Virus genome (UHGV): UHGV-1345802
Source of the DNA: a virus
Length of the DNA: 14,708 nucleotides
Reading direction: 5' to 3' (one strand)
Position 1 is the first letter of the stretch, and each line of letters starts with the position of its first letter. The notes below the pieces were generated by a model, which saw nothing but the letters and a program-made list of their open reading frames with translations, ran no database searches and was not told the DNA's origin. Below are positions 1 through 5,055 of the stretch, piece by piece. The translations under genes and the position numbers were made by a program.

Positions 1-61
1 CGACTGTCGCCGGGTAGGTGACGCTTAATTCATTAAACACCACTCTGGCGGTTTCTGTCAT
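1..61 (-). CDS. 5' end of an unidentified ORF running off the window edge (begins MTETARVVFNELSVTYPATV)
   Basis: ATG at 61..59 on the minus strand with a weak AGGAT Shine-Dalgarno, open to position 1. It lies downstream of the Q-proximal terminator, where lambdoid phages place the first late gene. Too short to classify. Confidence 0.2.
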   Translation of the reverse strand, partial: MTETARVVFNELSVTYPATV

Positions 62-198
62 ATCCTACTGTTTTAGCATGTCTTTTTCCCTTTTCCGGTT
101 AACGTGACATACCAATAACTCTTGTCTAAAAAGCCAGCAAGCTGAAAGACAGGTATTCACCACCAGCACGTTTACTGTACTGATGCGATTTCAGTCAT

Positions 199-223
199 AA
201 AAAACCCGCCAGGCGGCGGGTTT
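199..223 (-). terminator. Intrinsic terminator downstream of Q (tR'-like)
   Basis: Stem CCCGCC (205-210) / GGCGGG (215-220) with a 4-nt loop. On the minus strand it is followed by a run of six T (complement of A199-204); on the plus strand only TTT follows. Confidence 0.65.
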
Positions 224-280
224 AAGTTGTGTGGCGTAGTAACCACTCTTAACATACTGACATACTTTTTGCGGACCGCG

Positions 281-673
281 CTAATCATTTTTTACTTTTT
301 TGGGCAGCCAGTCGTCCATCTCCAGCCTTACACCCAGCATCGACAGACATCCGTCAATAAATCCTTCAGCAATCTGCATCTCAATTCGTATTGCCTTTTC
401 GCTCTTCTTTCTTGTTCTGGCAATCTGCCTTTTTGATATGCGCAGCAGATAATGAGCTACCAGCAGCGAATACTCGTCCGGTTTTTTCTTCTTCAGGCGC
501 GTAAGGCAGTTTTCGATGATAAGGCCGTCATCATCGCTGCAGGCCGGGCGAGGTTTAGCGGTGGATGGTAAAAGGCCTTTAAATCCAGCAGCTATCGGAG
601 AATAGTCCACCCCGGCGTTACCACTTGCCGCCCATGCCCCCCAGCGTTCGAGAACCATCTGAATATCACGCAT
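281..673 (-). CDS. Q: Late-gene antitermination protein Q (phage 82 / QuuD-like family)
   Basis: Translation MRDIQMVLERWGAWAA... recalled as similar to prophage Q antiterminators (QuuD type). ATG at 673 is preceded by GGAG about 7 nt upstream; the ORF-track start at 688 is a TTG. Stop TAG at 283..281. It is the last gene before the terminator, as in lambdoid late-control regions. Confidence 0.8.
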   Translation of the reverse strand: MRDIQMVLERWGAWAASGNAGVDYSPIAAGFKGLLPSTAKPRPACSDDDGLIIENCLTRLKKKKPDEYSLLVAHYLLRISKRQIARTRKKSEKAIRIEMQIAEGFIDGCLSMLGVRLEMDDWLPKKVKND

Positions 674-690
674 CAACTTTCTCCACAAAA

Positions 691-1680
691 TCAGGACAGC
701 ACACCAATCGCCAGCGCGCGATCGATAAAACGAAATATCAGCTCCAGCTGGGAGCCATACTTCTCTTCAAATGCCACGGTATCCGCATGCAGCTCGTCGT
801 GATGCTTTCTGCACAAAGGCAACACAAAGAGGTCATGCGCTTTTGTACCCATTCCGCCCTGACCGTGACCTATCAGGTGGTGGGGATCATCAGCAGGTTT
901 TCCACAACATGCGCACGGCTGCGTCTTAACCCAGCGCGTGTACTTTTCATTAACCCAGCGGCGACGTTTTGGGCGTAACATAAAAGACTCCGGCGACTCC
1001 GGATCCACTTTCAGCGCCAGCACCTTTTTCGCTTTATCCCGGATAATACTGGTGGCGGGAACCGAAGGCACAAGGTCACTTTCCCGGGTGACAGACGGCA
1101 CAACCGTCTTCGGTAATCTCAGTACCTTACGGGCTGCACTTTCCGGTAAGGCATCCGCCAGGTCATTACGAACCAGCCACCAGCACAGTTCCGGCATTGT
1201 CACAACGTGACTGTCATCAAAACCAAGATCACGGCGCACAACAGACAACACCCAGCGGGCACAGTTATCCGTTGCCATTGATTCCAGCCGTTCCGTGAAC
1301 TGGTCACGGAGGAGATTGTCACAGTGCCAGCACAGACGGATTGCGCCTGGCGCGTGCCGCATTGTGGTCATGTTCTCGCTGTGCCAGTCGGAATGAGGCC
1401 ACTGACAGCCCTTTTCACGAAGTAACCAGCTCTCAAGGCATTCCACGCCACCAGCACGACGGATCACCGCCTCATTGCGGAACACGGCCCGAACGGCAGG
1501 ATCATCCGCCAGCGGTTGTGATGCCGCCGGAACGGCACCACTGGCGAAAGATGAATAACGCTCCGGCTCAGGCTCCAGCAGGACACGCCCCTGCATAAAC
1601 AGGGGCATCAGCTCTGAACCAGGCCTGAACAATACGATCCCCATACGCGGGGCAATTTCAGGGGTCAGTAGTGCTCTCAA
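691..1680 (-). CDS. DUF968-like nin-region protein (YdfU-like) with a Cys/His-rich HNH-like C-terminal motif
   Basis: 329-aa ORF; the C-terminus CACCGKP...HHLIGHGQGGMGTKAHD...PLCRKHHDELH shows a CxxC...HH...H pattern. Position immediately upstream of Q matches lambdoid prophage architecture. Start is ambiguous: TTG at 1680 (GAGG 7 nt upstream) or ATG at 1644. Confidence 0.55.
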   Translation of the reverse strand: MRALLTPEIAPRMGIVLFRPGSELMPLFMQGRVLLEPEPERYSSFASGAVPAASQPLADDPAVRAVFRNEAVIRRAGGVECLESWLLREKGCQWPHSDWHSENMTTMRHAPGAIRLCWHCDNLLRDQFTERLESMATDNCARWVLSVVRRDLGFDDSHVVTMPELCWWLVRNDLADALPESAARKVLRLPKTVVPSVTRESDLVPSVPATSIIRDKAKKVLALKVDPESPESFMLRPKRRRWVNEKYTRWVKTQPCACCGKPADDPHHLIGHGQGGMGTKAHDLFVLPLCRKHHDELHADTVAFEEKYGSQLELIFRFIDRALAIGVLS

Positions 1681-1689
1681 CGTAGAACC

Positions 1690-2205
1690 TCACAGCACAA
1701 TCTGTTTCAGTTTCTGTACCGCTTTCCCCATATCCGCCATAGCATCAACAAACTCATCAAATTTACGACTTGCCATTCCATACGCCTGGAGGATTTCCAG
1801 TTTCAGAGGATCCAGTTGCTTTTTAATTTCCGCACGATCATTAAATTTCTTCTCTGCTTCTTCCGCAGCCCTGATCAGCTCCTCAGCATGCCTGCGTAAT
1901 TCATCCGGAGTAACGGTCTTTTTAATCACAACGGGTTCCTCTGTTTTTACTGGTATTTCACTATTTACTGCCTGATGTCCAAATTTAGGATGATGTAACG
2001 TTGTAGTTCTTCCATCATTCGCAACGACCAGAAGTCCACTGTCGCGGATAATGCCAATGAGTATCTCCTTATCCCTTTTATTCAGTAGACTGTACGCCTG
2101 CACTTTCTGTGATATCTGGGTCAGTGTTGCGCCTTCCGGCATTCGTTCAACAAAACGTTTAACCCTGGATAAAACTGGCTGCAGATGGGGTGGTGTAATT
2201 CTCAT
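1690..2205 (-). CDS. Hypothetical phage protein (171 aa), charged and helix-rich at the C-terminus
   Basis: ATG at 2205 preceded by GGGAGG; stop is 10 nt from the next start. No family recognised. Confidence 0.55.
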   Translation of the reverse strand: MRITPPHLQPVLSRVKRFVERMPEGATLTQISQKVQAYSLLNKRDKEILIGIIRDSGLLVVANDGRTTTLHHPKFGHQAVNSEIPVKTEEPVVIKKTVTPDELRRHAEELIRAAEEAEKKFNDRAEIKKQLDPLKLEILQAYGMASRKFDEFVDAMADMGKAVQKLKQIVL

Positions 2206-3036: not shown

Positions 3037-3198
3037 TGGTTTCTCCACAAATTTTTATCCACGAGCGGGACTGCACTCCCTTTTCGTTGATGCAGGATGA
3101 ACTTACTGCGATTTTTAATAGTTATCAAGGATACACTGTTCATAAATACAGTATCTTTAACGAGGTAATACCCAAATTTAGGGTGTTGCTCAATTCCG

Positions 3199-3594
3199 TT
3201 ACCGAGTTGCTAATTTGCAACTCGCTTTTTCGTACTTACTGATAGTGATCTCGACCTTCCCTTCCGGGATAACCGGTCCCCACTCCACCAGCATTCTTTT
3301 CACCTGGCTGTCGTCTTCCCACACACCCGCGTGGGTCAGGGCGTCAAACAGCGCCTTGTTATAGTTGTCCAGATCGCGGATCCGGTTATCCGGAGGAAAC
3401 AACACGATCTCCACTGAAGCAGGTGCCGACGTTGGTTTCGGCAGACGACGTAACTGCTCAACTATTGCTGCACACGCCGCGCTCTGGAATTTTCGCCCCG
3501 CCGCGCTTATCAGGCTCTTACCAGCAAACGCCCCTTTGTTAGGGTGTCGCCAGTACGTGTTCACGCTGGGCGGAAAAGGCAGTATTAGCTTCAT
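3199..3594 (-). CDS. rusA: RusA-family Holliday junction resolvase
   Basis: MKLILPFPPSVNTYWRH...DLDNYNKALFDALTHAGVWEDDSQV matches the conserved RusA pattern (PPS-N-Y-R, DxDN, D-AL). ATGA start/stop overlap with the upstream gene at 3591-3594. Confidence 0.85.
   Translation of the reverse strand: MKLILPFPPSVNTYWRHPNKGAFAGKSLISAAGRKFQSAACAAIVEQLRRLPKPTSAPASVEIVLFPPDNRIRDLDNYNKALFDALTHAGVWEDDSQVKRMLVEWGPVIPEGKVEITISKYEKASCKLATR
3204..3230 (+). terminator. Plus-strand hairpin plus T-run inside the 3' end of rusA (possible antisense or convergent terminator)
   Basis: Stem GAGTTGC (3204-3210) / GCAACTC (3217-3223), loop TAATTT, then GCTTTTT. The T-run is on the plus strand only. Confidence 0.3.
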
Positions 3595-4567: not shown

Positions 4568-5055
4568 TAAGCCCCCACGTAATTCCCTGACAGATACCAC
4601 TCATCACCCGCTACAGCGCGCTTTCTGCTTTTCCGTAAGCACCGCTCACGACGCGCCAGAAAATTGTTTCGTTCTGGCTGGGAGTGGCTTTCACGGAATG
4701 CCGCCATCCACACGGTTGCAGCACGACGGTATAAGCCCCTGGACTCCAGTTCTTCCGCCTGGCGGGTCAGGCACAAAATCACCCGGGGATCGTTAGTGCC
4801 GACATAGAAATTGCGCACAGGTATGGTTTCAAGAACAGGTTGCAGTTTCTCCTCCTGCGATATCTCAGCCTGGTGTGGGAAATGTCTGCGTGTTTTCCCT
4901 TCACAACAGTGAGCCACACGGCCACTCTGACGTAACTTGCTTGCTGACTGCAGAACGCACTGTCGTGAGTAACCAGCAAAAGCATCCGCAATGTCACCTG
5001 AAGTACACCCCGGATGGGCTTCAATGAATTTCTGTACATCGTTCATCAGACTCAT
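4567..5055 (-). CDS. PerC-family-like regulator with an N-terminal extension (Pch-like)
   Basis: The C-terminal segment AEELESRGLYRRAATVWMAAFRE... resembles the PerC signature (LE-KGLWRRAA-W) as recalled. ATG at 5055 lies 2 nt after the replication-gene stop with a GGGGG Shine-Dalgarno; the track start at 5061 is GTG. Confidence 0.45.
   Translation of the reverse strand: MSLMNDVQKFIEAHPGCTSGDIADAFAGYSRQCVLQSASKLRQSGRVAHCCEGKTRRHFPHQAEISQEEKLQPVLETIPVRNFYVGTNDPRVILCLTRQAEELESRGLYRRAATVWMAAFRESHSQPERNNFLARRERCLRKSRKRAVAGDEWYLSGNYVGA

Follow-up and report, generated by a model that had tools for sequence, protein, structure and literature searches.

A conserved intrinsic terminator just past the Q gene of a lambdoid prophage and the late promoter predicted in front of it

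Gene Q and the hairpin beyond it

The window analysed here, the whole stretch of 14,708 nucleotides from the viral genome UHGV-1345802, belongs to an E. coli lambdoid prophage and represents its early-right region, which is read on the minus strand. A CI-like repressor is encoded on the plus strand. The other encoded proteins are a Cro-like and a CII-like protein, a replication initiator, a Dam-like methylase, RusA, a KilA-N protein, a DUF968/YdfU protein and the antiterminator Q. The end of the window with which this analysis is concerned holds the Q gene and a hairpin beyond it:

281..673, minus strand: gene Q, antiterminator of the Q21 family, 130 aa, ATG at 673, stop codon TAG at 283..281
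199..223, minus strand: intrinsic terminator, stem at +25..+33 / +38..+46 of the predicted late RNA, loop GCCU, U-run at +44..+49

The Q protein matched the Pfam family PF06530 ('phage antitermination protein Q'; family definition in PMC9388147) over the full-length model with an E-value of 2.8e-52, and the solved Q21 structures 6P18/6JNX with an E-value of 1.4e-7. It is 48% identical to the Q protein of phage 933W, which likewise belongs to PF06530. Positions 1..700 of the window are found in prophages of complete E. coli genomes at 98-99.9% identity, those of strains CP55_Sichuan and STEC2018-607 being 99.9% identical. In the 99.9% identical prophage, the hairpin is followed on its 3' side by a 65-codon ORF, several terminator-like hairpins and a SASA-family esterase gene, and next by DUF1378 and DUF826 genes and the holin gene. 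Holin and late genes also lie 3' of the hairpin in cdtI, SfIV and SfV. Since late genes follow in these relatives, the hairpin lies at the entrance to the late region. The window itself stops short of the holin and other late genes. Of the deposited phages, those closest to the window (~90% identity) are Stx2a phages from non-O157 strains; past the corresponding position they have a small ORF, a DNA methylase gene, three tRNA genes and stx2AB. No toxin genes were visible in the window or in its nearest prophage relative.

The first-pass annotation of this DNA had placed a terminator 58-82 nt past the Q stop codon. This was borne out, as the stop codon TAG lies at 283..281 and the hairpin with its T-run at 223..199. 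On the minus strand the element reads, from 223 to 199, AAACCCGCC-GCCT-GGCGGGTTT plus the T-run; letter by letter, it consists of A223, AACCCGCC, GCCT, GGCGGGTTT and TTT ending at 199, preceded by CTT and followed by ATG on the 3' side. The stem contains six G-C and three A-U pairs and is closed by the tetraloop GCCU. The U-tract, TTTTTT at 204..199 of the minus strand, lies on the Q strand directly 3' of the stem; the downstream ORF shares this strand with Q and the T-run. On the plus strand, just TTT comes after the stem. The folding energy of the terminator element was -16.3 kcal/mol (z = -4.1), and none of 200 shuffled sequences folded equally well or better.

A generic promoter and terminator scan did not list the hairpin, either in the window or in the 99.9% identical prophage. 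This was likely a tool artefact, the A-U extension having been counted as part of the stem and the T-run consumed in this way. The generic scan was replaced by a custom scan for a hairpin followed by a T-run, run with shuffled controls. When both strands of the 14.7-kb window were scanned for a T-run with an upstream hairpin, the terminator was the top-ranked site. At -14 kcal/mol or below there was one such site, while 60 dinucleotide shuffles of the whole window led to an expectation of 0.08. The hairpin is a real, conserved intrinsic terminator.

The predicted late promoter and its leader RNA

Between the last codons of Q and the terminator, the following features were assigned, with positions relative to the predicted start where signs are given:

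285..293, minus strand: A-tract AAAAAATGA at -46..-38, within the last Q codons
279..284, minus strand: -35-like TTAGCG, 3/6 matches, 19-nt spacer, containing the Q stop codon
270..279, minus strand: GCGGTCCGCA at -32..-23, candidate Q-binding element, palindrome GCGG-T-CCGC
254..262, minus strand: predicted extended -10 of PR', with TG at 262..261, T, and CAGTAT at 259..254
251..256, minus strand: alternative -10 TATGTT, with which the start would shift to 244
242..251, minus strand: TAAGAGTGGT at -4..+6, invariant across Q clades A, B and C
247 (alternative 244), minus strand: predicted PR' start, the A of TAAG[A]GTGG, by homology to 933W/Sp5
231..246, minus strand: predicted 5' leader hairpin, GUGGU, UACUAC and GCCAC at +2..+17, from fold prediction
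199..247, minus strand: predicted short late leader RNA of ~49 nt with two hairpins, which would be made without Q

No convincing -35/-10 pair had been recognised by eye in the first-pass annotation, and this was upheld, as a consensus scan found no sigma70-like promoter in positions 1..2000. With an ad hoc promoter score, the homology-supported PR' ranked about 12th within 420..1, and nothing in this interval stood out. The assignment of PR' was made by homology rather than from the hexamers of the window, which are weak. The reference for this assignment is 933W/Sp5, which has in common with the window the Q family, the TAAGAGTGGTTAC block, the 5' hairpin, the position of the terminator (+27..+49 in 933W/Sp5, +25..+49 in the window) and a PR' that overlaps the 3' end of Q. 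The window DNA aligns with 933W from TAAGAGTGGTTAC through the hairpin. On the homologous DNA, the 933W record annotates pR' as TTTACG-16-TATCAT, a 'qut' and a 'possible rho-independent terminator', the last at 20726-20748 of NC_000924. The -10 in the window is in register with TATCAT, annotated in 933W as the pR' -10. The two regions differ in detail: between -35 and -10, 933W has ACGATCGT and the window GCGGTCCGC, and the hairpin of the window, with six G-C pairs and a tetraloop, is stronger than that of 933W.

The module in the window is thus homologous to one with a mapped start. The primary 5' end of the PR' RNA of Sp5, a prophage identical to 933W, has been mapped 258 nt from the 3' end of the RNA (Sy et al. 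2020, PMC7547250), and the same RNA is cleaved by RNase E within GUAUU, between GU and AUU, at +173 (PMC7547250). In the 933W locus L004, a start at 4701 alone fits both the 258-nt RNA and the cut at +173. Since position 247 of the window is homologous to the A mapped in 933W/Sp5, the PR' start is predicted there.

Comparison of relatives within the Q clade of the window gave 23 distinct promoter variants, which are colinear from -45 to +24. The A residues at -45 and -43..-41 are present in 21-22 of the 23. T at -36 never varies, and -35 is A in 21 of the 23 relatives; all 23 have A at -11 and T at -7, and G at -6 is again invariant. The -10 has the form TAnnnT except in the sub-clade to which the window belongs. 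The TAAGAGTGGT block around the start occurs in every one of the 23 clade-A variants and also in 933W, PhiR29_2, Stx2a_1447, SfII and Stx1_132418. SfV, whose Q is of the lambda family, lacks it. The A-tract AAAAAATGA resembles a proximal UP-element subsite (consensus AAAAAARNR). In L074, L079, L082 and APSE-1, a longer Q ORF spans the whole promoter, and the Q ORF of L074 ends with TGA TAA just 5' of the start site. As longer Q ORFs span the promoter in these relatives, the overlap of PR' with the 3' end of Q is the rule in the Q family. A literature search for the conserved sequence strings returned unrelated papers alone.

In the predicted leader, the 5' hairpin is followed by CUUAAA, the terminator hairpin and the U-tail, and the whole folds into two hairpins with an energy of -21.9 kcal/mol (z = -5.1). 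The corresponding leaders of relatives are 47-62 nt long. In nearly all of them a 5' hairpin begins between +2 and +4 and is followed by CUUA(A/U), a G+C-rich hairpin and a U-run ending at +47 to +60. Three sequences were found for the stem of the 5' hairpin in relatives: GUGGU/GCCAC, GUG-UC/GACAC and GGUUACGU/ACGUAGCU.

A search of Rfam at permissive thresholds gave sub-threshold matches alone (isrK, STnc370, P9 and the Leu leader), all of them driven by the hairpin. The match to isrK (RF01394), which scored 16.5 bits where the cut-off is 50 and aligned over the terminator alone, was rejected, as was that to STnc370 (RF02064), with 29.8 against 54, lying on the opposite strand and covering the hairpin alone. 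Identity with StxS was also considered and rejected, the match between positions 199..1 of the window and the part of the 933W leader past the first hairpin being just the 11 nt of GCTGGCTTTTT. No second terminator was found within 199..1, and the GCTGGCTTTTT remnant gives no terminator fold.

Conservation of the module and comparison with known late regions

The module of promoter, leader and hairpin was gathered from 80 viral contigs with Q relatives 65-100% identical to the Q of the window, together with deposited phages. More than 40 distinct relatives, belonging to about 16 species of enterobacteria, have kept it. The stem of the terminator is preserved in 20 of 22 distinct variants in a hand-anchored alignment, in which the pairs were counted on folds lined up at the stem base; MAFFT had shifted the two groups of stems by one column against each other. 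Between these groups, CCCGC(C)/(G)GCGGG and CCUCGC/GCGGGG, the pairs at stem positions 4 and 5 are exchanged in a compensatory manner, G-C for C-G. The variants carry unrelated loops (GCCU, CGCGA, CGAUGC, UUCG, CAUA and AUUA). With -15.6 kcal/mol, the hairpin of the window is the strongest of the variant set. A few relatives have no U-tract terminator at the corresponding position.

The promoter pattern GCGGTCCGCA-N18-TAAGAGTGG was also searched for over one genome per species, which gave 18 records. Sixteen of these were from Enterobacterales genera, including Buttiauxella, Citrobacter, Klebsiella, Kosakonia, Erwinia, Rahnella, Yokenella, Edwardsiella and Pantoea. At least 12 of these 18 genomes have the module with a hairpin and a U-run ending at +47..+62, and their stems include further variants. 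In 933W and SfV, the homologous hairpin already bears a terminator annotation.

The position of the module relative to Q varies among relatives. In cdtI, SfIV, SfII, Stx2a_1447, Stx1_132418 and PhiR29_2, a different terminator lies directly 3' of Q. In these six, two or three opposite-strand genes are located between Q and the module (a porin gene in PhiR29_2), and the A-tract, promoter, leader and hairpin are found as a unit 1.7-2.5 kb past Q, directly upstream of the late genes. Since the module stays with the late genes despite the insertions, the hairpin belongs to the promoter and not to Q.

The spacing of the late-control region was compared with that of known systems, the leader being measured in each case to the end of its U-run:

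lambda: Q stop to start 78 nt, leader 193 nt
phage-21-type (phage 2851): Q stop to start 42 nt, leader 46 nt
933W: Q stop to start 22 nt, leader 49 nt, second terminator at 258
window: Q stop to start 34 nt, leader 49 nt

The region had been singled out in the first-pass annotation as a compact late-control region. Compact it is, but it is not unusual, since the phage-21-type leader has 46 nt and the hairpin of 933W lies at +27..+49. Comparison with late regions of the 21 type and of lambda showed that the Q21-type layout is equally compact and that of lambda longer. The compact layout is ordinary for the Q21 family and is already annotated in relatives.

Lambda resembles the predicted arrangement in having a constitutive PR' just past Q, a short leader that is terminated in lysogens, and Q-dependent read-through. 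It differs in its unrelated Q protein (PF03589), its leader of 193-194 nt and its PR', which lies wholly downstream of Q. Phage 21 is nearer, having a Q protein of PF06530 and an equally compact layout, and the nozzle mechanism of antitermination is presumably common to both. The identity between the Q of the window and Q21 is nevertheless about 33% over 79 residues. The PR' of phage 21 is TTGACA-17-AACACT, whereas the promoter of the window is much weaker and without the TGAGCA repeat. The leader and terminator sequences of phage 21 are unrelated to those of the window, and the TAAGCT pause element of phage 21 (+2..+7) has no clear counterpart in the window. Phage 2851 carries TTGACA and two TGAGCA subsites that agree with the Q21 binding site as published (PMC6606751), and its leader folds into a terminator with -20.2 kcal/mol. 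SfV presents a further combination. Its putative rho-independent terminator (U82619, 33675-33710) is part of a stretch of hairpin, downstream small ORF and methylase module that is about 81% identical to the window, but its Q is of the lambda family, its PR' is lambda-like with AACGATGGG and its leader has about 65 nt. The homology between SfV and the window begins exactly at the hairpin.

Proposed read-through by Q, competing readings and the candidate Q-binding element

The hairpin is probably the first (tR'-type) terminator of the late transcription unit, with PR' located between Q and the hairpin and with read-through depending on Q; this reading is drawn from sequence comparison. Of the two possibilities offered in the first-pass annotation, the comparison supports the one in which the terminator ends a very short Q-dependent leader and PR' overlaps the end of Q, the start falling at about 247 by homology and the -35-like hexamer containing the Q stop codon.

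For the window we infer promoter activity, a leader RNA, a Q-binding site, a pause site and Q-dependent read-through, which may act together as follows. PR' would fire constitutively, and RNA polymerase would, without Q, make the leader of about 49 nt and stop at 201..198. Once accumulated, Q would bind its site at the promoter and load onto the polymerase just past the promoter. There it would form a nozzle on the RNA exit channel, so that the terminator hairpin could not form, and the Q-modified polymerase would read past this hairpin and the terminators after it, reaching the late and lysis genes. Such a mechanism has been described for Q21 in two structural studies, in which Q, located beside a sigma-paused complex, builds a ring on the RNA exit channel; the nascent RNA is threaded through it and hairpins are kept from forming (10.1101/651190; PMC6606751); the nozzle mechanism is also described in PMC9388147. 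A terminator beginning at +25 would fit the loading of a nozzle, since loading occurs while the RNA is still short. If the assignment is right, it is a routine annotation that shows where late transcription of the prophage begins (~247) and first ends (~199), and where the early region gives way to the late one. In phages of the 933W type, this module also governs the expression of Shiga toxin.

The alternative that survives best, and which we still consider improbable, is that the hairpin is a leaky first attenuator. The main product of PR' would then be a stable small RNA of the Hfq type with two hairpins and a U-tail, like StxS or IsrK, and downstream terminators would impose the block. Such a role overlaps the preferred explanation and differs from it in which function matters most. 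In its favour, the 258-nt PR' RNA of Sp5 extends beyond the homologous hairpin and has an Hfq-binding regulator as its 3' part (PMC7547250). In addition, the 99.9% identical prophage has at least five more terminator-like hairpins before the esterase and holin genes; the predicted leader, with a 5' stem-loop, an A/U-rich linker and a terminator, has a layout typical of such RNAs; and positions +1..+24 of the leader are conserved beyond what a spacer needs. IsrK of Salmonella Gifsy-1 (RF01394) is likewise a short RNA made from an antitermination-controlled prophage promoter and ending at an intrinsic terminator (PMC7547250), but it has no significant match to the window in sequence or structure. 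More generally, no Rfam family reaches its threshold (isrK with 16.5 bits against 50). The StxS RNA of 933W is defined by the second terminator at +258, and this segment of 200 nt is absent from the window, in which the 74-nt StxS segment has no homologue. The strength of the window's hairpin, greater than that of any other variant, also points to efficient termination. For Sp5 lysogens, an abundant 258-nt RNA ending at the second terminator has been reported, with a 49-nt RNA unmentioned (PMC7547250). Either the hairpin of Sp5 is leaky in vivo or the short RNA was lost from the libraries. The read-through of a seemingly good terminator at +27..+49 in Sp5 is a puzzle worth following.

Much less probable is the other possibility of the first-pass annotation, that the hairpin ends the early rightward operon after Q and that the Q-dependent PR' lies further downstream. 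The hairpin is indeed the first terminator past Q on the same strand, and the top site by the ad hoc promoter score lies downstream of it, at 128..101 (TAGACA, 16 nt, TG-t-CACGTT), and is conserved in SfV, cdtI and Stx2a_1447. This arrangement is nevertheless contradicted by the six relatives in which Q has a separate terminator of its own and the hairpin travels, 1.7-2.5 kb away, with the promoter module near the late genes. The start mapped in Sp5 is upstream of the homologous hairpin, and the promoter features located upstream of the hairpin do not vary between genera. Any early transcript running into the hairpin would be stopped as well, which could be an additional role and would leave PR' where it is. 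Finally, short G+C-rich hairpins do arise by chance, and the generic scan gave 1.8 weak sites per 2 kb in shuffled sequences, but the idea of a functionless chance inverted repeat followed by T's is effectively refuted by the 0.08 sites expected per window at the strength of this hairpin and by the compensatory changes that preserve its structure across many phages and genera.

Under the preferred reading, in which the hairpin is the first terminator of a Q-controlled late unit, Q should recognise an element at the promoter. The element GCGGTCCGCA, with its palindrome, was invariant in all 23 distinct promoter variants, and different palindromes take its place in the other Q clades. The palindrome, of 8-10 bp, reads GCGGTCCGC in the window, cdtI, SfIV, L074 and APSE-1, whose Q proteins are 55-80% identical. 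It is GCGTACGC in Stx2a_1447, Stx1_132418 and SfII, and in the 933W/QuuD-like clade it is ACGATCGT in 933W and ACGTACGT in PhiR29_2. Tentatively, the palindrome just downstream of the -35 might be what most Q proteins of the Q21 family actually bind, the Q that activates Stx2 among them; separately, and with the same reserve, the leader of about 49 nt might be a discrete small RNA. If the former were true, these Q proteins would read an inverted repeat located 7-8 bp further upstream than the direct repeat in the Q21 structures. If the latter were true, the two-hairpin leader of about 49 nt would be a prophage small RNA overlooked by standard RNA-seq. The variation of the palindrome by clade offers a cheap lead, rather than a result, as to which DNA element each Q clade recognises.

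Subsites of the phage-21 type, two TGAGCA 8 bp apart between -35 and -10, were not found in the window. The window does contain AGTATGT twice, with a period of 8 bp, at -19..-5, but the repeat is confined to the window's own sub-clade. As a Q-binding site it was rejected, being absent from other members of the clade.

For the sigma-dependent pause element, a search for conserved nAnnnT windows in the 23 relatives gave no convincing candidate. The conserved windows were just those at -3..+3 and at +18/19..+23/24. The latter, nAnCTT, is unlikely to be the pause, since by our reasoning the pause should precede the emergence of the 5' hairpin (+2..+17). The best geometric candidate is TACTAC at +7..+12, which corresponds to TACATT in 933W, overlapping the annotated 'qut', and is without the final T in most relatives. 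If TACTAC were the pause element, the geometry of the AGTATGT repeat would fit that of Q21.

Mosaic joints around the hairpin

The hairpin downstream of Q (199-223, minus strand) was compared with the corresponding late regions of related phages, among which SfV differs in its Q gene.

L002, 2400-2540: SfV late region; Q of the lambda family, late promoter lambda-like

The SfV promoter was read as TTGCAT-17-TAAGAT, followed by AACGATGGG. SfV has the terminator and the downstream module in common with the window, and the junction falls exactly at the hairpin. Since the homology begins exactly at this point, the hairpin is a boundary in the mosaic between phages whose Q families are unrelated to each other.

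Between the Q stop codon and the A-tract of the promoter, insertion has recurred in six loci (L003, L005, L006, L094, L095 and L096). The insert, two or three reverse-strand genes that include a porin gene in PhiR29_2, sits precisely where Q would otherwise adjoin the late promoter module. In the loci carrying it, Q gains a bidirectional terminator of its own.

Leader variants were drawn from L031, L009, L011, L047, L087 and L077, together with L099, L101 and L104, and in several relatives from this set a terminator with a U-tract was absent at the hairpin position. The natural variant L031 has a leader of 32 nt, in which a deletion joins the 5' hairpin to the terminator. The natural leader variants L009 and L011 carry a C-to-A mismatch in the stem.

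Repeats within the predicted late promoter, one of them a candidate Q site

Two repeats and one distant counterpart were considered in the late promoter PR', with offsets counted from the start predicted at about 247.

270-279, minus strand: palindrome near the -35, with counterparts in L003, L004, L094, L095 and L096
252-266, minus strand, -19 to -5: AGTATGT twice, an exact direct repeat with an 8-bp period
L007, 1501-1559: counterpart of window 300 to 243 in the Hamiltonella phage APSE-1, 83% identity over 59 nt

In the window and the loci of the five relatives the palindrome lies just 3' of the -35, and its sequence differs by Q clade. It is GCGGTCCGC in the clade of the window, unchanged across 23 variants and 18 species genomes, GCGTACGC in the clade of Stx2a_1447, Stx1_132418 and SfII, ACGATCGT in 933W and ACGTACGT in PhiR29_2. 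Judged from sequence, the clade-dependent palindrome is a candidate Q-binding element of the inverted-repeat type, whereas the site of Q21 in phage 21 is a direct repeat. The AGTATGT repeat has the same period as the Q21 binding site but is located about 6 bp further downstream, overlapping the -10. Among the Q relatives compared, this repeat was confined to the sub-clade of the window and was not found outside it. The APSE-1 stretch falls within the 3' part of a Q ORF that is longer there, and thus the promoter and the candidate binding site have been kept across genera within coding sequence.

Matches to the promoter pattern also came from a metagenome bin assigned to Dehalococcoidales and from an isolate assembly of Chryseobacterium (L100 and L103). 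The former looks like a chance match; the latter contains the full module with a Q-like ORF next to it, suggesting contamination by enterobacterial DNA.

The hairpin in Sp5/933W and in the terminator scan

L004, 4727-4749: 933W homologue of window 199-223, at +27 to +49 of the mapped Sp5/933W PR' transcript

In Sp5 an abundant 258-nt RNA with its 3' end at the second terminator was described, and a 49-nt RNA was not mentioned (PMC7547250). This points either to a leaky hairpin or to loss of the short RNA through the size cut-off of the library. The promoter/terminator scan overlooked this clear terminator both at 199-223 in the window and at about 4978-5002 in L092, likely because the A-U extension was counted as stem, leaving too few T's in the tail. 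The runner-up hairpin with a T-run in the window (about 3196-3230, plus strand, -12.9 kcal/mol) lies at the RusA 3' end, antisense to the genes.

Sequences downstream of the hairpin

65-67, minus strand: nonsense change in the first late ORF, codon 5, from CAG to TAG (MLKQ*DMTETARV...)
101-128, minus strand: TAGACA, 16 nt, TG-t-CACGTT, the top-scoring sigma70-like site in positions 420 to 1

The nonsense change is the sole difference in 700 nt between the window and the CP053731 prophage, and an internal stop is also flagged in the homologous ORF of the Stx2_14040 record. Translation could restart from the ATG at 61. The sigma70-like site lies between the terminator and the small ORF that follows it, and SfV, cdtI and Stx2a_1447 have kept it. 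It may be a Q-independent promoter, comparable to the annotated 933W tRNA promoter.
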